Of a DNA stretch of 59,252 nt, positions 2,522 through 59,252 are shown in pieces. The translations under genes were made by a program, and so were the position numbers. A model generated the notes under the pieces. The model saw nothing but the letters and a program-made list of their open reading frames with translations, was not told the origin of the DNA and made no database searches. Origin of the DNA: Clostridia bacterium (GTDB lineage Bacteria; Bacillota; Clostridia; Christensenellales; UBA1242); NCBI GenBank assembly GCA_017619495.1, contig JAFZSF010000012.1, positions 1-59,252 of the forward strand, read 5' to 3'. Position 1 is the stretch's first letter. Every line of letters begins with the position of its first letter.

Positions 2522-2552
2522 AAAAACACCGTCAAATTGGCGGTGTTTTTTT
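2522..2552 (+). terminator. eno terminator, an intact copy of the hairpin that is split at 2994/4631
   Basis: AAAAACACCGtcaaattgGCGGTGTTTTTTT: a perfect stem plus T7. Confidence 0.8.
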
Positions 2553-2982: not shown

Positions 2983-3007
2983 TTAAAACAATCAAAAACA
3001 CCGTCAA

Positions 3008-3070
3008 TAGTTAGTGCATTTTGAAACTAGCGGAATAAAAAGAACTCTACTGTTTAGTTGGGTTCTTTTT
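3008..3070 (+). repeat. left-end repeat copy A (terminus plus subterminal hairpin)
   Basis: TAGTTAGTGCATTTTGAAACTAGCGGAAT followed by the hairpin AAAAAGAAC...GTTCTTTTT. It matches copies at 17636 and 43412, and in inverted form at 4588-4612 and 19046-19071. Confidence 0.8.
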
Positions 3071-3144
3071 ATTGTGGGGTAATATTGACTTTCGATAACT
3101 TGATATGTTATCATTACAGTCAAATCAAAAAGGAGAATCATAAA

Positions 3145-3615
3145 ATGTCAAACGAGAAAAAAGGTGAATTGATTACATCGGTCAAATCTGGTAATGGATT
3201 AAAAATATTATCTGATTTAGAAGCACGAGCCAAGATGGATAGTTTCGGATTTGATAATTTGTATTACTTAGATATTGATTACAAAACCCAGGCACAAGCT
3301 GATTATATGCAAGAAAAGTATGGTAATGAATATAGTTATGGAAAAAACGAGTATATGCAATATTGGGGTTGTGTTAATGCAGAAACTGATAATCAAAAAA
3401 CTGGAAGTTTTATAACCACTGATAAAATGTTATTTAAAAATCTTGTTTATCACTTCATTAATGACGAAAAAATGACTGTATCAGCGTGGACAAAAAAATT
3501 TGCCAATAGTTATAATCCACAAGAAGATTGGAGCAACCTTCTCGGATGTCTTGTTAAGGATATGGCAGAAAGAAGAAATAAAATAAACACGGAATGTGCT
3601 AGTACAAACAAGTAA
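3145..3615 (+). CDS. hypothetical protein (156 aa), cassette cargo
   Basis: ATG preceded by an SD (aaaaaggaga). The longer ORF from 3058 would run through the promoter-like TTGACT...TTATCAT. AT-rich by eye. No family recognised. Confidence 0.55.
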   Translation: MSNEKKGELITSVKSGNGLKILSDLEARAKMDSFGFDNLYYLDIDYKTQAQADYMQEKYGNEYSYGKNEYMQYWGCVNAETDNQKTGSFITTDKMLFKNLVYHFINDEKMTVSAWTKKFANSYNPQEDWSNLLGCLVKDMAERRNKINTECASTNK

Positions 3616-3660
3616 TTATATAATAAAATGACCCGCAGTAATGGGTCATTTTTATTTGAA

Positions 3661-4470
3661 TTAGTTGTTAATCGCATTGACCAAATCGCTATGGATTTTC
3701 CCGTTCGTTACTAACATGGTATCGACATTTTCGCGTGGATTGCCTGCTAGATTGGTAACTTTGCCGCCGGCTTCTTGCACCAACAGTTTGCCCGCCGCCG
3801 AACTTAAACCAATACTGGGTTTTACATTCAAAACACCGTCTGTTTTACCCGCAGCACACCAAGCCAATTCAATTGCTGAAGAAACAATTAAGCGTAAACC
3901 ACGCACTTTAGGTGCCAATTTACCTTCAACATTTAATACATCTTGAATGTGTTTTTCGCTATAATGTGAAGTTAAACAAAATGACACAATACTGTCCTTT
4001 AATTGGGTAGTGCTAGAAACATGAATTGGTTTTTCATTGCAAAACGCGCCTTGTCTTTTGATACATGTGTAAACATCGTTTTGACTGTAATCATAAATCA
4101 CACCTAAAATTGCTTCACCATTTTTACGCAAAGCAACAGTAGTTGAAAACAATGGAATGCCAGCGGCAAAGTTAATCGTGCCATCAATTGGGTCAATTAA
4201 CCATTCGTATTCACTGTCATTTTTAATTTGTCCACATTCTTCGGCTAAAATCGAATGGGTTGGAAACCATTGTTTAATAGCATCAACAATTTTCTTTTCC
4301 ATAAAAACATCAACATCGGTAACTATGTCGTTCAATTCTTTGTTCTGGATATTTTTGTTTTTAATTGTTTGTGATTCTTGATAAGCGTTTTTAATCAAAT
4401 CAGCTAATTTTGTAGTGAGTTTGAAATCAATTTCCATATTTAATGGTATCATGAAATGATTATTAATCAT
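3661..4470 (-). CDS. inositol monophosphatase (IMPase/SuhB/CysQ) family protein, cassette cargo
   Basis: Contains LAEECG and WLIDPIDGTINF motifs and a C-terminal ...SSAAGKLLVQEAGG motif. The start is ambiguous (M1, M7 or M12). Confidence 0.8.
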   Translation of the reverse strand: MINNHFMIPLNMEIDFKLTTKLADLIKNAYQESQTIKNKNIQNKELNDIVTDVDVFMEKKIVDAIKQWFPTHSILAEECGQIKNDSEYEWLIDPIDGTINFAAGIPLFSTTVALRKNGEAILGVIYDYSQNDVYTCIKRQGAFCNEKPIHVSSTTQLKDSIVSFCLTSHYSEKHIQDVLNVEGKLAPKVRGLRLIVSSAIELAWCAAGKTDGVLNVKPSIGLSSAAGKLLVQEAGGKVTNLAGNPRENVDTMLVTNGKIHSDLVNAINN

Positions 4471-4485
4471 AATAATTTTTAATTA

Positions 4486-4587
4486 TGGCAGTTAAACATG
4501 TGCTTGTCTATATACAAGTGGCGTCGCTTCGCTCCGCTAAAGACAAGCACAAAAAGTGTGTGCTTGTAAACAAGCGCACGCACTTTT
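4486..4587. repeat. right-end internal module with CTTGT/ACAAG hairpins, shared with 18822-18863
   Basis: TGGCAGTTAAACATGTGCTTGT ... GTGTGTGCTTGTAAACAAGCGCACGCACTTTT. The same sequence, minus a ~53-nt internal expansion, occurs at 18822-18863. In both places it lies directly 5' of a minus-strand cargo gene. Confidence 0.7.
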
Positions 4588-4612
4588 CGCAAGTTTCAAA
4601 AGTTAGTGACTA
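4588..4612 (-). repeat. right-end repeat copy E (inverted terminus)
   Basis: The reverse complement TAGTCACTAACTTTTGAAACTTGCG aligns with the left-end copies and best with copy D. Confidence 0.75.
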
Positions 4613-4750
4613 TTGGGCGGTGTTTTTTTTTGTTAGGTAGCGTTTGGGGAGCATGATAAACTGGGGTAGTGAAAAAGAAACTAATTAAAGTTATTGTTGA
4701 AATTGTGATTGCCGCGGTTTTGTTAATCGTGGTAGCGACACATAAATAGT

Positions 4751-13847: not shown

Positions 13848-16800
13848 ATGAAAAATCTTCACATTTCCTTAAAAAATTTTTTAATGTTGTTGTGTCTGCT
13901 AGCGATGTTTCCGTTTGCAATACTGTTAACGGCATGTGATGGTGGGGGCTCAGGAACGGTGACACCGGACAGAACAATTATGGATGTGAGCTGCGCGATT
14001 CGTGATAGCAGTGTTAATTACACGTTTGTGAATGATTATGAAATTCGGATTGCACATGATGCGAATATTTACAGTCTCATTGGTAATCAGGATTTTATTG
14101 TGACAGTTTATTATTCGGATGGCACTAACGAGGTTGTTAATTTGGGTTATACCGTTAATATTGTCGACCATACTAGCGAAGGTATGTATTACGATTACAC
14201 AATTGAAGTTAGTTATTCGGGTATTGATTATACAATTTGTTCCATCAATGTAATTGTTGATGCAGAGATGTTGCCAATGTTTACAAACCTTTCTGCGATT
14301 GGTGATATTTATTCGGGTTATAATTTTACCGAAGAATTACGTTATACTGGTAATGAATACGATGTTTCCGAAATGATTGTTACCGGTGATGGTACAACCT
14401 TGGCAGAGTTAGTTGCGCAAAACAAAGTAACTTTGGATACTTCAAATTACGGTTGTGCTTTACCAACTTGTACCTACCAAACAACAAATCCAAATGTATA
14501 TTGTGGTAATGATCAATATGATAATTATTCATTTATCATCCGGGCGAACCGTGGTTATCAATGGGAAATTGAAGGACAAGCGGTTGATTCGTTAACCGTA
14601 AACTGGCAAATTAAACGTCAAATTATTGATACACCGGTATTAACTTCGGCAACTGAATTTACTTATCAACACCGTGCTGAAACAGTCAATGGCCAAACAA
14701 CTTATGTTGGTGTACCACAAAGTTTAACCTTTAATTATGGTAATGGGGCACTGTATGTTACTCCCGCGGATCAACAAACCGATCATGGAATGTACCAAAC
14801 TGTGTTGAGAGTGAAAGATGAATGCGATGAATTCTACACCTTTATGATTAATGGTGAAGAACGTGATTCAGTGTGGTTTGATTGGTCAATTACACCAATG
14901 CAATTAACACGACCGACCATTGCGCAAAATCATTATACTTATACTGGCAGCGAAATTAAACCAGCCGTAATTAGTGATTATTTGGATTTGTTTGACATTA
15001 CTTATCCAACTTGGTGTGTTGCAGCATCATCGGAAAATTCTTGGTACCAAATTGGTATTAGTTTGAAACCTGAATATTATTATTCGTACAATTATAATTT
15101 GGGTTATGATGAAAGTAATCCTGTTTATAACGTTAATCTAAATTACTACATTGATCCAGCATCATTCCCGACCGCAATCGCAACAGACCTTGATAATATC
15201 AACTTTGTTTTGGAAAAGGATTTGAATTACGACTATGGTACTTATGCGTCATCAATGACTTATGAAGAATATGTGAATGCTTTATATAAAGGTGATTTCG
15301 TTAATTCGGTTGTTGAGATGGCAGAATTCCAAGACCAATATGACAGTGAACGTTGGAGTAGATTTGAATTTGAATTACCTGATACTATGCCTGATGGTTT
15401 AACCGCCGACAGTTATCTTGATGCGAATACAACTACTGGTTATCCGGTTAAAGTTATGTACTGGTATGACCAAACAAATTATCAACCCTATACCTTTACG
15501 GCAATTTTGAAAATAAAACCAAAAGAAATGCCAATTAATACGACCTGGCAGCGTTGGATTTCTACCACAGGATACAGTGGATATATCAACACAGCAGACA
15601 GCGAAATCGTTTATGATCCGGAGGCAACATATGGTTATTACTTAAATAATTTCCATGAAATTGCAGTAAATTATACGATTTATTATGGTACAACGGAAAA
15701 CAATATCAATACACCTGTTAATGCTATGTCAAATGCAGGTTATTATCGTATCGTGGCAACTTTAGTGGCACCCAACAACAATAACACAAATAACTTCTTG
15801 ATTTATGATGAAGATGATAATAGTAAAACTCCAATTGCATCTTTAACATATCCAAACATTATACACATTAGCCCAAAACCGGTTTCATTCTGGGCTTACA
15901 GTGGTACAGTAAATTATGTTAATACTTGTGAAAATTATTACGTAGAGGGCGTGGCACGAAGCATTGATAAGCCAACCTTACATGACACTTTGGTATTACC
16001 TTATGTTGATGATCAAAATGACCAAGTGGAACGAGTAACATACTATCGTGCTAATCAAAATGCGGCTTGGACGGTAGCTGAAAACACGATTGATGTCGGT
16101 TATTATAAAACAGTGTTTACTTGGCATTTGAATGACCAATACAATGATGGTAACTATCAATTGGTATCGTTTGATGCCGATACTAATGCTAATGTCGACG
16201 GTGGTTTTGCAACGGTTGAATGGTATATTTACCCCAATACTTATGCATTACAAACCACAAACCCCAATGCAGATGGTTACATTGGTTGGTTGAATAATGA
16301 TGAATTTAGCGTGTATTATAATAATAACTACGATTGGTTTGCTGAATTGCCAGTTACAAAACCAGATGGTATCGGTATTGACTATATGTATGATAATGCT
16401 CATTACAATAGTGAAACCGGTGTGTGGCAAAGTTCTGGCAGTCAAAATTCGTCTAACCCGTCTGAAACGGGCGATTACTTGATGTATGCGAACTTCTATG
16501 TTAAAAACATCGCAGGTTGGGATCAGGTGACGGTAACAGTAGATGGTGAAGCGCGTATAATTAGTGAAGGCCATAAAATTATTTATTCTACAAATTCAAA
16601 ACATTTAGCCATTGTGGAGCAAACACCATCAAATATCGTCTTAAACAACAATGTGACATTTAACGTAGGTGGTTACAAATATTTCAGCTTTACCACGGGT
16701 GATGCTACGGAATATATGATTATTACCAATGAATCTAATGCAGTATTTAATCTTCGTTTAGCTAACGGAACGGACTATACATATTTACAAGGTGCAAGAT

Positions 16801-17384
16801 TAAACAATAGTCAATCTTATTACCTTTTACACGAATTGGAACCGAATACGAATTATGTTTTAAGGATTGGTCCAAATTCTAATTCTACTGAAGGCACACG
16901 TAGTTTCATGTTGATGGTATATCCGGAGCAATTAGATTTTGAATATTCAAATGCAGTTACGGTTTATGATTTTACTAATGGTACGACTACTAGTGGTGGT
17001 TTTGTAATTTCCGCCCATGATGTTAATGTTGGTGAAACGGTAACAGTTCCGGCAACAGTTTATGCCGGTGTACCAACCAATCCGGATGAACCGATGAATT
17101 TAACATATTCAGCACATGATGTTATTGCTATTACAGCTAATGGTTTTGAAAATAACACCATGACACGCATTGATTTACCGTTTATCAAAAACATCGGTGA
17201 CCACGCGTTCAAAAATTGTACCAATTTGCGTGAAATCCATTTTGCTTATTATAATGGTGATTGGAAGAATATAGTCTTTGGTAAAAATGCATTTGAGGGT
17301 TGTACGAATTTAACTTTGTACACTGGTAATGGTGGAATTTATCACGTTTCTGAAGATGGTTCAATTACCGAAATTAACGCCTAA
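13848..17384 (+). CDS. large surface lipoprotein with a C-terminal BspA-type LRR (1178 aa)
   Basis: SD (caggagga), a signal peptide with lipobox (AILLTAC), a Y/N/T-rich beta-type body and C-terminal DHAFKNCTNL / NAFEGCTNL LRR units. Confidence 0.75.
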   Translation: MKNLHISLKNFLMLLCLLAMFPFAILLTACDGGGSGTVTPDRTIMDVSCAIRDSSVNYTFVNDYEIRIAHDANIYSLIGNQDFIVTVYYSDGTNEVVNLGYTVNIVDHTSEGMYYDYTIEVSYSGIDYTICSINVIVDAEMLPMFTNLSAIGDIYSGYNFTEELRYTGNEYDVSEMIVTGDGTTLAELVAQNKVTLDTSNYGCALPTCTYQTTNPNVYCGNDQYDNYSFIIRANRGYQWEIEGQAVDSLTVNWQIKRQIIDTPVLTSATEFTYQHRAETVNGQTTYVGVPQSLTFNYGNGALYVTPADQQTDHGMYQTVLRVKDECDEFYTFMINGEERDSVWFDWSITPMQLTRPTIAQNHYTYTGSEIKPAVISDYLDLFDITYPTWCVAASSENSWYQIGISLKPEYYYSYNYNLGYDESNPVYNVNLNYYIDPASFPTAIATDLDNINFVLEKDLNYDYGTYASSMTYEEYVNALYKGDFVNSVVEMAEFQDQYDSERWSRFEFELPDTMPDGLTADSYLDANTTTGYPVKVMYWYDQTNYQPYTFTAILKIKPKEMPINTTWQRWISTTGYSGYINTADSEIVYDPEATYGYYLNNFHEIAVNYTIYYGTTENNINTPVNAMSNAGYYRIVATLVAPNNNNTNNFLIYDEDDNSKTPIASLTYPNIIHISPKPVSFWAYSGTVNYVNTCENYYVEGVARSIDKPTLHDTLVLPYVDDQNDQVERVTYYRANQNAAWTVAENTIDVGYYKTVFTWHLNDQYNDGNYQLVSFDADTNANVDGGFATVEWYIYPNTYALQTTNPNADGYIGWLNNDEFSVYYNNNYDWFAELPVTKPDGIGIDYMYDNAHYNSETGVWQSSGSQNSSNPSETGDYLMYANFYVKNIAGWDQVTVTVDGEARIISEGHKIIYSTNSKHLAIVEQTPSNIVLNNNVTFNVGGYKYFSFTTGDATEYMIITNESNAVFNLRLANGTDYTYLQGARLNNSQSYYLLHELEPNTNYVLRIGPNSNSTEGTRSFMLMVYPEQLDFEYSNAVTVYDFTNGTTTSGGFVISAHDVNVGETVTVPATVYAGVPTNPDEPMNLTYSAHDVIAITANGFENNTMTRIDLPFIKNIGDHAFKNCTNLREIHFAYYNGDWKNIVFGKNAFEGCTNLTLYTGNGGIYHVSEDGSITEINA

Positions 17385-17410: not shown

Positions 17411-17450
17411 CAAAAACAAAAGGCACAAAACATTGTGCCTTTTGTTTTTG
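17411..17450. terminator. bidirectional terminator hairpin
   Basis: CAAAAACAAAAGGCACAaaacatTGTGCCTTTTGTTTTTG: a long perfect palindrome between the lipoprotein gene and the 3' end of tRNA-Glu. Confidence 0.8.
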
Positions 17451-17525
17451 TGGTAGTCCCGATGGGAATCGAACCCATGATACCACCGTGAAAGGGTGGT
17501 GTCTTAACCGCTTGACCACGGGACC
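17451..17525 (-). tRNA. tRNA-Glu (UUC)
   Basis: 75 nt. The minus strand reads GGTCCCGTGGTCAAGCGGTTAAGACACCACCCTTTCACGGTGG...GGGTTCGATTCCC...CCA. A TTGCAA/TAAAAT promoter lies upstream. Confidence 0.9.
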
Positions 17526-17635
17526 AATACTTTTGTATTTTAACATAACAATGCGCGCTTTGCAAGCATAAAAAAATTAACTGCCCGTGCAATGTTAATT
17601 GGCCGTTTATAAAAGCAGACAAAAAAGCCCAAACA

Positions 17636-17690
17636 TAGTCAATGCATTTTGAAACTAGCGGAAAAACTCTCAAGTTATGAAAGTTTTTCC
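17636..17690 (+). repeat. left-end repeat copy B (terminus plus subterminal hairpin)
   Basis: TAGTCAATGCATTTTGAAACTAGCGG followed by the hairpin GGAAAAACT...AGTTTTTCC. Confidence 0.8.
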
Positions 17691-17693
17691 GTT

Positions 17694-18773
17694 TTATAGT
17701 TTTTTTTCAAATTCCGGTTTTTTATTTCTAACTGTTTCTTTAGTTAAGAATGGATAATCTCCCGAATAACAAGTTTTTTCAATATATGGTTTGACATTAT
17801 CGTAAGTTACATATTTATCTAACACAGACACAGGCAATGTGCTTAAATCCTTAACTCCTAATTTTTTTTCTAAATCTGTTTTGAAAGCATTAATTATTTC
17901 ATAGCAAAATAATGAATTATAAGATTTTTCTTTTACTGACGGTTCATCAGCAATTCCCATTAGTAAATTACCATATGCATCATTGACATGAGGTAATAAA
18001 GGCAACTTACAAGTCCCATTAAACCATTCTCTATGTTTTTGATAAATTTGAGTTATTAACTCAAACATAATATCAAAATTTTTTTCTGTGCAATACACAA
18101 GCATTGTGTCATTGCGATTATCTTTCGTATGAAATTTACAATATGGTCGATACATTTCATCATCAGGATGCATAGCACATTTCTTAAACAATTCAGTAGC
18201 TATGAAAGTTGCATTTTCTGGCGTAGTATTAATATAAATCCGTCTGTGAACTTCTTCAGGTTGTCCGAACGGATATAAATGAACAAAACCGTCAAGACCC
18301 AATTCCATATTCGCATATTTATTAATATTGTCTTTTGTTAATACCTTCATTGATCTATACATCGTTTGCAAGTATTCAAAATTTCTTCCACAGGATAATC
18401 CATCAGAACGAGAATAATGAAATGGATAATTTTTATCGTTCCGATCAGTAAGGAAGAAATTATAAGCCAGCACGGACTTTTCTTTTTGTTGGTTTGCCCC
18501 TAATTGTTGATACATAGAAAAGAATTCATTAACACCCGCATTGACTTGCTTGTGCCAATAATATGGAATCATAGTATCAGCAACATTGTGATAAAAAATT
18601 GCTAATTGCTTAACAGTTAATTCTTTTTGGGTGCCATTTGGATTATTTTGTAAAAAAAAATATTCATCTCTATGCGGTGTTTGGATACTACGCTTAATAT
18701 AATCAACAATACTTTTTTGGGTTGAATGCTGTTTGTCAGCCAATTCTATCATTTTTTTGATAATATCTTCCAT
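17694..18773 (-). CDS. hypothetical protein, possibly of the family databases label HopA1-like (from memory, unverified); cassette cargo
   Basis: The pattern RRIYINTTPENATFIATELF...KFHTKDNRNDTMLVYC...GIADEPS resembles the R.Y.N..pe.A...K.....R.D..VLY...AedP pattern I associate with that family. The start is set at MEDIIKK, 7 nt after a TATAAT. AT-rich. Confidence 0.5.
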   Translation of the reverse strand: MEDIIKKMIELADKQHSTQKSIVDYIKRSIQTPHRDEYFFLQNNPNGTQKELTVKQLAIFYHNVADTMIPYYWHKQVNAGVNEFFSMYQQLGANQQKEKSVLAYNFFLTDRNDKNYPFHYSRSDGLSCGRNFEYLQTMYRSMKVLTKDNINKYANMELGLDGFVHLYPFGQPEEVHRRIYINTTPENATFIATELFKKCAMHPDDEMYRPYCKFHTKDNRNDTMLVYCTEKNFDIMFELITQIYQKHREWFNGTCKLPLLPHVNDAYGNLLMGIADEPSVKEKSYNSLFCYEIINAFKTDLEKKLGVKDLSTLPVSVLDKYVTYDNVKPYIEKTCYSGDYPFLTKETVRNKKPEFEKKL

Positions 18774-18821
18774 CAGAAAAATTATAAACTTTTTCAAAAC
18801 AAAAAACAATAAATAATAATT

Positions 18822-18863
18822 TGGCAGTTAAACGTGTGCTTGTAAACAAGCGACGCACTTTTT
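18822..18863. repeat. right-end internal module (copy 2)
   Basis: TGGCAGTTAAACGTGTGCTTGTAAACAAGCGACGCACTTTTT. It matches 4486-4507 plus 4561-4587 and contains the palindrome GCTTGTaaACAAGC. Confidence 0.7.
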
Positions 18864-19045
18864 CTTTTCTTCGTTTGTTAGCGTAAACGGATATTCTTTG
18901 TTGTCAAGGTTAAAGTGAATATCTAACAATTACAAAATTTATACTAATCACGGTAACCTATGACAACGGCAGAAGTATCCGTTTAACAGTTTTAACAAGG
19001 GCAAAAGAAAACACCCTAACCAATTTGGTTAGGGTGTTGATTATT

Positions 19046-19071
19046 CTGCTAGTTTCAAAAGTCAGTGACTA
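19046..19071 (-). repeat. right-end repeat copy D (inverted terminus)
   Basis: The reverse complement is TAGTCACTGACTTTTGAAACTAGCAG. Going inward it is followed by the hairpin CACCCTAACCaaattGGTTAGGGTG (19007-19037). Confidence 0.8.
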
Positions 19072-19143
19072 TGATTGGGCTTTTGCTGATTAAAATTTTA
19101 TGCAGTGGTGGTCGTAGTGGACTGGTTGGCGTGAGCTAAATAT

Positions 19144-43400: not shown

Positions 43401-43411
43401 AAAGACCGCCA

Positions 43412-43468
43412 TAGTTGCAGCATTTTGAAACTAGCGGAATAAGAACTCAAAATGCGAGTTCTTTTTTT
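43412..43468 (+). repeat. left-end repeat copy C (solo) plus a terminator hairpin
   Basis: TAGTTGCAGCATTTTGAAACTAGCGGAAT followed by AAGAACTCaaaatgcGAGTTCTTTTTTT, starting 12 nt after the dinB stop. Confidence 0.8.
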
Positions 43469-43549
43469 GAACAAAGATTACAGTAATGTAATATTCAGTT
43501 AGTTTCATTTTATTTGTGGATATGTTAAAGTATACGCAAGGGGTAAAAT

Positions 43550-44068
43550 ATGGAAGAGTTATTAGACACTTTTGATATCAATGGTAACTTTCTTGGAATA
43601 AAAACTAAAAGTTTTTGTCATAGTGAAACTCCTGGAGTTTACCACAAACCTGTATGGATATGGATTATGAATAACGAAGGTGAAATTCTTGTCCAAAAAC
43701 GTGCATTAGCAAAGAAAAAAAGCCCAGGTAAATGGGATATGCCGTCGGCTGGGCATGTTGAGGCTGGCGAAAGTCCTGTTCAAGGATGTGTGAGAGAAAC
43801 AGAAGAAGAACTGGGAATTAAATGTAAGCCGAAAGATTTTATATTTCTAAAAGAAATTGTTAATCAGCACGGCTGGGAACTTGCGCAAGTTTACCTTCTT
43901 AAAACGAACACGAAAATTAAAGATATGAAATTACAAAAAGCAGAGGTTGAACAAGTTAAATGGTTAAAATATGCTGACTTTGTTAAACTTTTTTATTCAG
44001 ACGAGTTTTGTGAACATGAAAAGAGTTACAAAGATTGGGTTTGTGATGTTTTGAAAAGATATCAATAA
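43550..44068 (+). CDS. NUDIX hydrolase
   Basis: Nudix box GHVEAGESPVQGCVRETEEELGI (GX5EX7REUXEEXGU). Confidence 0.9.
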   Translation: MEELLDTFDINGNFLGIKTKSFCHSETPGVYHKPVWIWIMNNEGEILVQKRALAKKKSPGKWDMPSAGHVEAGESPVQGCVRETEEELGIKCKPKDFIFLKEIVNQHGWELAQVYLLKTNTKIKDMKLQKAEVEQVKWLKYADFVKLFYSDEFCEHEKSYKDWVCDVLKRYQ

Positions 44069-44121
44069 TTTTGGTGCAACAAAAGGTGTTAACTGTGTCA
44101 ATCCCACGGGTTGGTTTGTAT

Positions 44122-58930: not shown

Positions 58931-59252
58931 TAATATTAGAGTTTGATTCTGGCTCAGGACGAACGCTGGCGGCGTGCTTAATACATGCAAGTCGAACGGA
59001 TATGTAGCAATACATATTAGTGGCGGACGGGTGAGTAACGCGTAACCAACCTGCCTTTTACAGGGGAATAACACTTGGAAACAGGTGCTAATACCGCATA
59101 TGACCACAACGCGGCATCGCGAAGGGGTAAAAGTTTTATCGGTAAAAGAGGGGGTTGCGTATCATTAGCTTGTTGGTGAGGTAACGGCCCACCAAGGCGA
59201 CGATGATTAACCGGCCTGAGAGGGTAAATGGTCACACTGGAACTGAGACACG
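58931..59252 (+). rRNA. rrs: 16S ribosomal RNA, 5' part (runs off the window)
   Basis: AGAGTTTGATTCTGGCTCAGGACGAACGCTGGCGGCGTGCTTAATACATGCAAGTCGAACGG at 58938 onward. The exact 5' end is estimated. Confidence 0.95.

Follow-up and report, generated by a model that had tools for sequence, protein, structure and literature searches.

The 59,252-nt stretch of DNA analysed here (the window; contig JAFZSF010000012.1, from a Clostridia bacterium of the order Christensenellales) carries, between a tRNA-Glu gene and the operon read from 19979 to 19144, a 1.4-kb segment that we term cassette 2. Sequence comparison indicates that this segment is a mobile gene cassette with no recombinase of its own, lodged in the middle of a transcription terminator hairpin and missing from a closely related strain. 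We consider it to be a non-autonomous integrative cassette, one of a family of small elements whose movement depends on a large serine recombinase (LSR), and put the probability of this reading at about 0.8.

Structure of cassette 2

Cassette 2 measures 1,436 bp (17,635/17,637-19,070/19,072), has imperfect inverted ends of 26 nt, and interrupts at its centre a palindrome made up of A-tract, stem and T-tract. A first-pass annotation of the window, made from its sequence alone, described the two halves of this palindrome, GACAAAAAAGCCCAAACA (17618-17635) and TGATTGGGCTTTTG (19072-19085), and a segment between them that begins TAGTCAATGCATTTTGAAACTAGCGG and finishes CTGCTAGTTTCAAAAGTCAGTGACTA; all of these statements hold at their positions. 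The right end in reverse complement reads TAGTCACTGACTTTTGAAACTAGCAG. The joined flanks, read on the minus strand, had been taken for a terminator hairpin with its T-run, and the re-joined sequence does fold as one (-15.3 kcal/mol, z -4.2), followed by a U-run and situated 59 nt past the stop of the 19398-19144 open reading frame (ORF). When the flanks are included, a repeat search returns arms of 44 nt (17623-17666 and 19041-19084) that are 86% complementary. The cargo is, as had been noted, a single AT-rich ORF of 359 aa, in a region of 32-34% GC as against 44-47% in the genes to its right (19.2-21 kb). The junctions are best notated flank-AT-[AGTCAATGCA...GTCAGTGACT]-AT-flank, with AT at 17635-17636 and 19071-19072. 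The features of the cassette and its target are the following; L341 is a contig of a related strain in which the site is empty.

17618..17634, no strand: A-tract and stem, GACAAAAAAGCCCAAAC, that make up the left half of the split target and adjoin its right half in L341; proposed arm of a bidirectional terminator and putative attB
17635..17636, no strand: left copy of the junction dinucleotide AT, present as a single AT in L341; proposed crossover core
17637..17661, plus strand: cargo-distal end (B side), AGTCAATGCA + TTTTGAAACTAGC + GG; proposed attP-derived half-site
17657..17699, plus strand: inward-facing terminator hairpin inside the left end, GCGGAAAAACTCTCAAGTTATGAAAGTTTTTCCGTTTT, from folding
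17694..18773, minus strand: cargo ORF of 359 aa, from ORF calling
18774..19009, minus strand: conserved leader, from the cargo-proximal end to the ATG, defined by alignment with L335, L336 and L329, by blastn to LSR loci and by a motif survey
19010..19045, minus strand: inward-facing terminator hairpin inside the right end, AACACCCTAACCAAATTGGTTAGGGTGTT + TTCTTTT, from a terminator scan and folding
19046..19070, minus strand: cargo-proximal end (A side), read on the minus strand as AGTCACTGAC + TTTTGAAACTAGC + AG; proposed attP-derived half-site
19071..19072, no strand: right copy of the junction dinucleotide AT
19073..19085, no strand: right half of the split target, GATTGGGCTTTTG, contiguous with the left half in L341

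The leader contains a TATAAT box right before the ATG, a remnant (18826-18870) of a structured motif of 70 nt that is described below, and a TTGACA-containing block at about 18880-18920. Both 13-nt cores of the cassette are perfect. An 85-nt left-junction construct that takes in the left hairpin folds at -19.2 kcal/mol (z -3.4) and a 94-nt right-junction construct with the right hairpin at -28.4 kcal/mol (z -4.8), values that describe the whole constructs and not the hairpins alone. With their T-runs the hairpins occupy 17657-17693 (plus strand) and 19010-19038 (minus strand). The left hairpin is predicted to halt transcription entering from the left, and also closes the cargo gene region; the right one is the predicted substitute for the split host terminator of the 19979-19144 operon. 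With inward terminators at both ends, transcription from either side should still stop, which would make terminators tolerant landing sites.

The cassette ends recur within the window. The left-end motif, GCATTTTGAAACTAGCGG, is found at 3016, 17644 and 43420, with a degenerate inverted copy at 19046-19063 (4 matches against 0.06 expected; 0/100 shuffles), and the right-end motif at 4592-4612, 19051-19071 and 17636-17656 (3 matches against 0.00 expected), in agreement with the earlier observation that left ends resemble each other across copies and right ends likewise. All three copies lie no more than 60 nt downstream of a stop codon. The further claim that flanks are specific to each locus and self-complementary within it stands for cassette 2 and for its sibling cassette 1 (AAAAACACCGTCA / TGGGCGGTGTTTTT), and does not extend to the third copy (43411...), of which the window holds the left end only.

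One locus in three states

Exact-protein look-ups with the cargo and with the 189-aa neighbour re-found only the same organism; that with the neighbouring 84-aa ORF yielded two informative contigs, L341 and L342. L341 (Logan SRR33322346) matches the window from 21737 to 19070 at 95.5% and then, directly, from 17639 to 17481 at about 97.5-97.6%, the 1,436 bp between being absent. Its site reads CAGCAAAAGCCCAACC-AT-ATTTGGGCTTTTTTGTC, followed by the tRNA-Glu promoter and gene, and includes an uninterrupted hairpin, GCCCAACC-AT-ATTTGGGC, an 18-nt palindrome with one copy of AT only. Since 18 nt is the length predicted for removal of the cassette together with one AT, the insertion was base-precise. 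The joined hairpin foreseen by the first-pass annotation thus exists, at its predicted length and with two SNPs next to its centre.

L342, which comes from another sample of the project that also gave a scaffold (L337) carrying the same region, matches the window from 19697 to 18836 at 98.8%, with the same flank, end and leader. Beyond that point come the structured motif, here complete, and another gene, which lies on the opposite strand (L342:831-1230, compared with window 18836-17637). The comparison suggests that a deletion between two ACAAGCAC repeats removed the motif from the window copy. L341, the window and L342 therefore present one locus in three states: empty, occupied by a cassette with the 359-aa gene, and occupied by a cassette with other cargo.

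These contigs also bear on inversion, which the first-pass annotation had raised. An invertible, phase-variable segment bounded by inverted repeats might be suspected from the near-identical inverted ends and the palindromic AT core, at which a serine recombinase could in principle align its sites either way. Yet the orientation is identical in all four independent assemblies of the occupied site (L121, L337/L338-type contigs, L342), the polymorphism observed consists of presence or absence and of cargo replacement, and with a promoter and terminators of its own the segment would be little altered by inversion. Phase variation is thus extremely improbable, and the suggestion of inversion found no support.

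The same cargo is met elsewhere in cassettes of the same family. The 359-aa protein belongs to a rare family, with 9 homologue clusters in 5.8e9 proteins, and every homologue with readable context sits in such a cassette at another locus. Homologues at 55-60% identity (L335, L336, L329/L330) occupy cassettes that split different palindromes: L336 has AAAAGCCACTTA flanks on both sides and AT junctions; L335 has AT junctions too, and the 12 nt that comprise its junction AT and inner arm (ATAGTCACTGAC) are identical to those of cassette 2, as is its 13-nt core; L329/L330 have TT junctions and the flanks AAAAAACACC. A 61% homologue (L223) retains the cargo-proximal end only, its contig stopping inside the cargo, and several others are on contigs of about 1.3-1.4 kb broken at the cassette ends. 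The empty site, the same cargo at other loci and the other cargo of L342 together bear out the proposal that such cassettes arose by independent insertion of one element family into palindromic terminator targets. In a separate case, L331 (at 137) and L329 (at 3633), from different metagenomes, share one 574-aa cargo homologue, the right end and the right flank and differ in left end and left flank, a configuration that suggests either end exchange or an adjacent second insertion.

At orthologous loci of other species (68-89% protein identity), operon, terminator and tRNA-Glu lie within 230-390 bp or are separated by other, unrelated inserts. The cassette is absent from all of L314-L319, where the intergenic DNA is too diverged for base-precise comparison and two loci hold unrelated inserts. 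A metagenome scan for the predicted empty site returned nine unrelated terminators, none homologous to the window, and an all-against-all search for joined flanks among the fetched loci gave only approximate empty sites, in L146 and L247. The region between operon and tRNA-Glu is itself highly variable among related species (L314:3250-3520, L315:6900-7700 and L318:7030-8130, orthologues of window 17440-19140): L314 and L315 have tRNA-Glu in inverted orientation, L314 has a tRNA-like fragment, L315 an inserted histidine-phosphatase-like gene, and L318 an insert of 1.1 kb that is without the family ends and encodes a regulator of XRE type beside a pair of small zinc-ribbon-like ORFs.

The element family, its ends and its targets

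An early scan of a genome collection with a 14-base core gave mostly chance matches in unrelated phyla, but revealed Clostridia members. Scanning one genome per species with TTTTGAAACTAGCRGAATAA then produced at least 117 loci, nearly all in gut metagenome-assembled genomes (MAGs) labelled Clostridia, Christensenella/Christensenellaceae, Ca. Onthoplasma (classified in Christensenellales) and so on; counts from this survey are among the matches listed. Many of the contigs stop at the end motif, as expected of a dispersed repeat. Judged by these sequences, the family is large, apparently undescribed, and widespread in Christensenellales-like MAGs and gut Clostridia.

At least 40 inverted pairs bound segments of 0.8-7 kb, the majority being single-ORF units of 1-2 kb. 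Most genomes have two distinct kinds of end, End A reading TT-AGTYnnTnAn-TTTTGAAACTAGCRGAATAA and End B AA-GGGCTATAAA-TTTTGAAACTAGCAAAAAA, so that a direct TT repeat brackets the element on one strand; a minority subfamily, that of the window, has AT at both ends. Among 186 strict ends with a run of five or more A (A5+) outside, the junction dinucleotide is AA in 79, TT in 78 and AT in 22; AT accounts for 31 of the 224 strict ends overall, and TT/AA for the bulk of the others. Across 265 ends the 13-nt core hardly varies, and it is equidistant from the junction in both kinds of end, at 10 nt plus the 2-nt core. The cargo is diverse: a HaeIII-type restriction-modification system (L137), a complete type I system (L234), kinase-like proteins and an ABC transporter and, in the window, inositol-monophosphatase-family and NUDIX proteins.

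An A5+ run occurs in the 22 nt outside 186 of the 224 distinct strict ends (83%, as against 10% of background windows), and the stems between A-run and junction are locus-specific. In 73 candidate pairs the flank stems match on average at 6.8 of 9 positions, 48 of the pairs at 7-9, whereas re-paired controls have a mean of 4.8/9 and a maximum mean of 5.2; the low-scoring pairs are mostly tandem units of about 103 bp, in which one "flank" is the end of the neighbouring element. In 55 of 94 flanks an ORF of at least 80 aa ends within 100 nt of the junction, reading toward it. The A-runs, the paired stems and the ORFs ending toward the junction together identify the targets as bidirectional intrinsic terminators. 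That the motif might simply be a generic terminator-associated sequence is excluded: it occurs as inverted pairs around variable cargo and, in larger members, is linked to a recombinase gene. In the target the T-run lies about 3-5 bp nearer the centre than in the element arm, an offset reminiscent of LSR structures, in which a shift in the contacts of the zinc ribbon sets attB apart from attP.

Four chromosomal head-to-tail joints (L139, L209, L215, L219) have an exact 11+2+11-nt spacer between two 13-nt cores. This is the sequence expected of an attP, and is evidence of tandem accretion. Tandem arrangements are seen at L209:6083-6250, L139:2380, L215:6631 and L219:2840, and same-orientation end pairs of about 100 bp in L129 and L229; there are also "empty" mini-elements of about 100-120 bp that amount to hardly more than an A end and a B end. 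In eight contigs of eight different MAGs, one genome per species (L143:1925-2178, L144:7704-7957, L132, L186, L199, L232, L216, L005), an end region of about 190 bp is near-identical and consists, in order, of a B-type end, a terminator and an internal attP-like inverted site, TAGTTTCAAAAATTATAGAC-AG-ATTAAATACTTTTGAAAC. Its conservation suggests very recent interspecies spread, and its composition nested or accreted sites.

Association with a large serine recombinase

A larger member, L106 (6.8 kb), encodes a 500-aa LSR with Resolvase (5.6e-28), Recombinase (3e-18) and Zn_ribbon_recom (2e-6) domains, and also a rolling-circle Rep-like gene (REP_ORF2-G2P, 5e-11). We examined 80 loci of relatives found by search with this LSR. 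In about three quarters of the homologues of at least 65% identity, an outward-facing end of type A, followed by A-tract and stem, lies 67-280 bp beyond the stop codon (about 665 bp in L247/L248); most of the remaining loci are cut by contig ends. In nine loci (L234, L235, L236, L240, L241, L243, L248, L252, L273) an end of type B with the same stem in its flank lies 4-10 kb upstream, and the position and orientation of the LSR relative to end A are constant in about 30 loci of different species. The flank stem differs at every locus of these homologues, and 186 distinct ends share only A-tract and core. LSRs of about 44% identity from the same bacteria are without the end motif. The "autonomous" members hold little beyond LSR and cargo.

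AT junctions like those of the window are found in L234, L235, L310 and L239, and TT in close relatives. Serine integrases do not read the central dinucleotide and need only a match between partner sites; the presence of either AT or TT with closely related LSRs fits a core that merely has to match. The leader block at about 18880-18920 is homologous, by blastn, to DNA 120-160 bp upstream of the LSR start in L234, L235, L236, L240, L273 and L310, where the orientation is divergent, and cassette 2 thus looks like an LSR-deleted element. Cassettes and an LSR element are found together in the genomes CAMRSX01 (L166, L236), CARNVA01 (L133, L208, L310) and JAHAXB01 (L223, L258), the last being the closest sampled relative of the window organism (L314, 89%).

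The repeated 2-bp junction dinucleotide and the 11+2+11 joints fit recombination between attP and attB by an LSR, and do not fit a DDE transposon. A non-autonomous DDE element (for instance IS630/Tc1-like), resembling a miniature inverted-repeat transposable element (MITE) or mobile insertion cassette (MIC), would have terminal inverted repeats, a TA duplication and a preference for hairpin loops, and cassette 2 does offer imperfect inverted repeats of 26 nt, no internal transposase, and a TA that can be read at both junctions of the window copies. But TA duplication predicts an empty site of 20 nt, where 18 were observed; most members repeat the non-palindromic TT, and their A and B ends differ; ORFs scanned from L106, L234 and L236 include no DDE transposase (those of L137 and L063 were only partly scanned); and larger members carry the LSR at a fixed distance from end A, with tandem joints of exactly 11+2+11. 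The IS630 form of the idea, with TA duplication, is ruled out by the length of the empty site and by the TT-core members, and a DDE origin of any kind is very improbable.

Another possibility is that a different recombinase, of tyrosine or Xer type as for dif modules and integron cassettes, moves the cassettes and that the LSR is merely frequent cargo. There are cassettes without any recombinase, palindromic sites with a central spacer are known also from Xer and integron systems, and hairpin targets from attC and IS1111-type systems. Against this, the LSR keeps its position and orientation to end A in about 30 loci, and in the 44%-identity clade this LSR and the motif are lost together; no tyrosine recombinase was seen in the elements examined; and a shared 2-bp core is a hallmark of serine recombinases, tyrosine recombination having an overlap of 6-8 bp. 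We regard this alternative as improbable.

Proposed mechanism

The trans-acting LSR mechanism set out here is a proposal, one well supported by comparative evidence. A circular form of the element would carry a palindromic attP of about 48 bp, GCTAGTTTCAAAA-N10-XX-N10-TTTTGAAACTAGC, and an LSR dimer would bind this joint. The LSR would bind as well a degenerate attB built like a bidirectional intrinsic terminator, its core separated by 7-9 bp from an A-tract on one side and by 7-9 bp from a T-tract on the other. Both sites would be cut at the 2-bp core and the strands exchanged, the central XX (AT here, mostly TT elsewhere) having to match. After integration the attP halves would form the inverted ends, the terminator halves the locus-specific complementary flanks, and XX would stand at both junctions. 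A cassette without an LSR gene would be recombined in trans by an LSR encoded elsewhere in the genome. Cassette 2 retains two ends, an inward terminator inside each, a conserved leader with its own promoter, and one cargo gene, and appears to have lost the LSR gene. For cassette 2 the predicted empty site is ...AAAAGCCCAATC-AT-GTTTGGGCTTTT... and the predicted joint of the circle ...TTTCAAAAGTCAGTGACT-AT-AGTCAATGCATTTTGAAA... The sequences themselves show the base-precise polymorphism, the structure of the family, the linkage of its ends to an LSR gene, the repeated dinucleotide and the tandem joints. From these we infer that the enzyme is the LSR and works in trans on the cassette, that it recognises A/T tracts and symmetry, and that the cassette is still mobile here.

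Several observations weigh against this reading. No LSR gene was found in the cassette or in the 59-kb window, the part of the genome that was read. A scan of viral contigs for an attP-like joint gave 0 matches, and neither an excised circle nor a free attP was observed. With its closely similar ends and palindromic core, the AT subfamily has no polarity of recombination that sequence would define. Two SNPs directly beside the core separate the empty from the occupied allele. The target half-sites are nearly unconserved beyond A/T tracts and central dinucleotide, a looser specificity than that of well-studied LSRs. Finally, the LSR is without a close characterised relative: its matches in annotated phages and plasmids are below 40% identity, and it scores below the NCBIfam cut-offs (36 bits with the IS607 model, whose cut-off is 110).

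The absence of an LSR from the window invites the view that cassette 2 is a fixed relic, inserted by the LSR mechanism and now immobile for lack of a cognate LSR or through decay of its ends. Cassette 3 has lost one end, cassette 2 its structured motif, and cassette 1 has a mismatch in its right core. Both cores of cassette 2 are nevertheless perfect, near-identical strains differ in presence, absence and cargo, and the closest sampled genome, JAHAXB01, has both cassette and LSR (L223, L258, L314). We therefore hold immobility to be rather unlikely, though it deserves more weight than the other alternatives, and prefer a cassette that an LSR can still move.

More broadly, gut Christensenellales may harbour a dispersed integron-like system, in which an LSR reads the generic form of a bidirectional terminator rather than any particular sequence and moves hundreds of single-gene cassettes in trans, each with replacement terminators, a promoter and a conserved, covarying, strand-specific hairpin module with GCGAAGC, which may serve as a single-strand origin of replication or transfer. 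We offer this extension tentatively, as possible but on balance doubtful.

Relation to known systems

Multi-targeting LSRs have been described (Durrant et al. 2022, PMC10083194), one case having 21 attB sites, a TT core and T/A-enriched ends. The LSR of the cassette family is like these enzymes in its Resolvase, Recombinase and Zn-ribbon domains and in the many distinct attB per enzyme cluster, more than 10 in number and with only a short motif in common. It is unlike them in its targets and dependants, as far as the searched text of PMC10083194 goes: terminators, hairpins and palindromes have 0 occurrences there and recombinase-less cassettes are not described. The likeness is one of pattern and domains.

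The clostridial transposons Tn4451/Tn4453 (TnpX) and Tn5397 (TndX) have a serine recombinase, an excised circle, several joint-like sites and a 2-bp core at both ends. They differ from the cassettes in their autonomy, larger size and GA core, and in that terminators are not their targets; TnpX matches the LSR only distantly, in the N-terminal domain (E 1.5e-4). Comparable in organization are staphylococcal cassette chromosome (SCC) elements without ccr, or psiSCC, and the cis-mobilizable elements (CIMEs), which are att-bounded, have no recombinase of their own, are served by an enzyme supplied in trans and accrete in tandem. Like such elements, cassette 2 has its ends in common with LSR members (L234, L235, L310, all with AT core) and a leader homologous to the region upstream of the LSR. 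psiSCC and CIMEs, however, use one fixed site (the 3' end of rlmH, a tRNA or another gene), while the cassette family uses hundreds of terminators and consists of single-gene units of 1-2 kb.

Integron cassettes are similarly small, mostly single-gene, provided with a recombination site and no recombinase, diverse in cargo (defence genes included) and moved in trans. Integrons differ in their tyrosine recombinase IntI, folded single-stranded attC, ordered attI arrays and usually promoterless cassettes, whereas members of the present family are scattered over the chromosome, bring a promoter and terminators with them, and show linkage to a serine recombinase; attC and IntI features are absent. 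In the window, the cassette ends are without a GTTRRRY core, and the units are dispersed at 3007, 17635 and 43410 among housekeeping genes.

MITEs and MICs (MIC231, Correia) have terminal inverted repeats without transposase; MICs carry passenger genes, and these elements often lie in, or supply, terminators. They are DDE derivatives with target duplications, unlike the present family, whose autonomous partner encodes an LSR and whose empty site agrees with a crossover core instead of a TA duplication. IS607 has a small serine recombinase (a core of about 190 aa plus an N-terminal helix-turn-helix) and usually TnpB, in contrast to the 500-aa family LSR with its Recombinase and Zn-ribbon domains. 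Hairpin-seeking is known from IS1111/IS110 elements in repetitive extragenic palindromic (REP) sequences (ISPpu9, PMC12288879). These elements, and class C group II introns, which insert after terminators, likewise settle in palindromic, non-coding "safe" sites at gene ends; their enzymes and end structures (DEDD transposase and guide RNA in the one, reverse transcriptase/ribozyme in the other) are entirely unlike those of the cassette family.

The searchable literature, with subscription journals lying outside it, yielded no description of terminator-centred LSR targeting, of LSR-dependent mini-cassettes or of this cassette family, and a search for the end motif returned only an unrelated sgRNA (single-guide RNA) paper. 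If the mechanism holds, the family would be a serine-recombinase counterpart of MITEs and integron cassettes: a big pool of one-gene units shuffled among terminators, whose interruption would be harmless because the cassette supplies new ones. It would account for part of the strain-level variation in gene content, and of the contig breaks, in MAGs of a poorly cultured and abundant gut order. It would also offer synthetic biology a recombinase with landing pads (generic intrinsic terminators) in every bacterial genome and the central dinucleotide as selector.

The cargo protein

The 359-aa protein has no match in Pfam (E <= 0.01), NCBIfam or PADLOC. An AlphaFold (AF2) model built from 8 homologues has a predicted local distance difference (pLDDT) score of 73 and a predicted TM-score (pTM) of 0.74. 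In a Foldseek comparison with the PDB the top match is 9dk3_B, the LxmY lyase subunit of a lanthipeptide dehydratase (1.5e-4), followed by the Pseudomonas syringae effector HopA1 (4rsw/4rsx, 2-3e-4), then by lyase domains of class III lanthipeptide synthetases and, more weakly, by the phosphothreonine lyases OspF/SpvC; TM-scores are only 0.3-0.4 throughout. The modelled fold may thus be weakly HopA1- or phospho-lyase-like, which we take as a lead and not as an assignment.

A structured motif in the cassettes

The motif of about 70 nt that is complete in L342 has the form GGCGTGTGCTTGTC-[inner hairpin]-ACTTGTATAAG-ACAAGCACACGCC-TAAATGCC and is present in 60 distinct copies (for example L137:3275-3363 and L336:3875-3963). 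Its inner hairpin has tandem G-A positions and a GCGAAGC mini-hairpin; six of its nine pairs show compensatory changes (among them C-G 23, U-A 15, A-U 2), a covariation seen in 0 of 500 shuffles, and its G-U pairs are confined to the cargo-sense strand. The motif is located upstream of the cargo promoter in TT-core cassettes, at a distance of about 330 nt from end A, and between LSR and cargo in autonomous members. It is not in Rfam at gathering score, and Rfam has nothing in cassette 2. The motif could be a structured RNA, or else a single-strand origin or nick site; as a conserved module it is a separate lead to a new RNA or single-stranded DNA element.

Sibling cassettes and other features of the window

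Three further features of the window relate to the family.

2522..2552, no strand: intact terminator AAAAACACCGTCAA-AT-TGGCGGTGTTTTTTT, fold -16.0 kcal/mol, z -5.0
3007..4613, no strand: sibling cassette 1, with AT junctions, from end motifs
43410..44121, plus strand: sibling cassette 3, left end only, AT-AGTTGCAGCA-TTTTGAAACTAGCGG, from motif search

Cassette 1 carries two ORFs, one of 156 aa on the plus strand and one of the inositol-monophosphatase family on the minus strand, with a full copy of the structured motif (4487-4569, minus strand) upstream of the latter; its right core has the one mismatch mentioned above. The hairpin that cassette 1 splits has a near-identical paralogue 470 bp upstream, the terminator at 2522-2552, with AT at its centre. 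This terminator shows what an unoccupied target looks like, and is possibly a local duplication.

The left end of cassette 3 is perfect and comes immediately behind the stop codon of the 41991-43400 gene (an IMS-family polymerase); a tRNA-Cys gene follows the cassette. Its cargo is a NUDIX ORF (43550-44068) that matches the PADLOC candidate PDC-S07 (1e-13). A right end or matching flank is absent anywhere in the 59-kb window, and cassette 3 is either a one-ended relic or the product of rearrangement.

Just left of tRNA-Glu, an ORF of 1,178 aa (13848-17384) ends in a C-terminal BspA-type leucine-rich repeat. The segment 11853-13454, of 27-28% GC and with an ORF without Pfam match, may be foreign. 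The last 322 nt of the window (58931-59252) are the first 322 nt of a 16S rRNA gene, and eight tRNA genes stand singly at scattered positions. Nearly every 600-nt bin has a positive GC skew regardless of gene strand, and the cumulative skew rises steadily, which places the window within one replichore.

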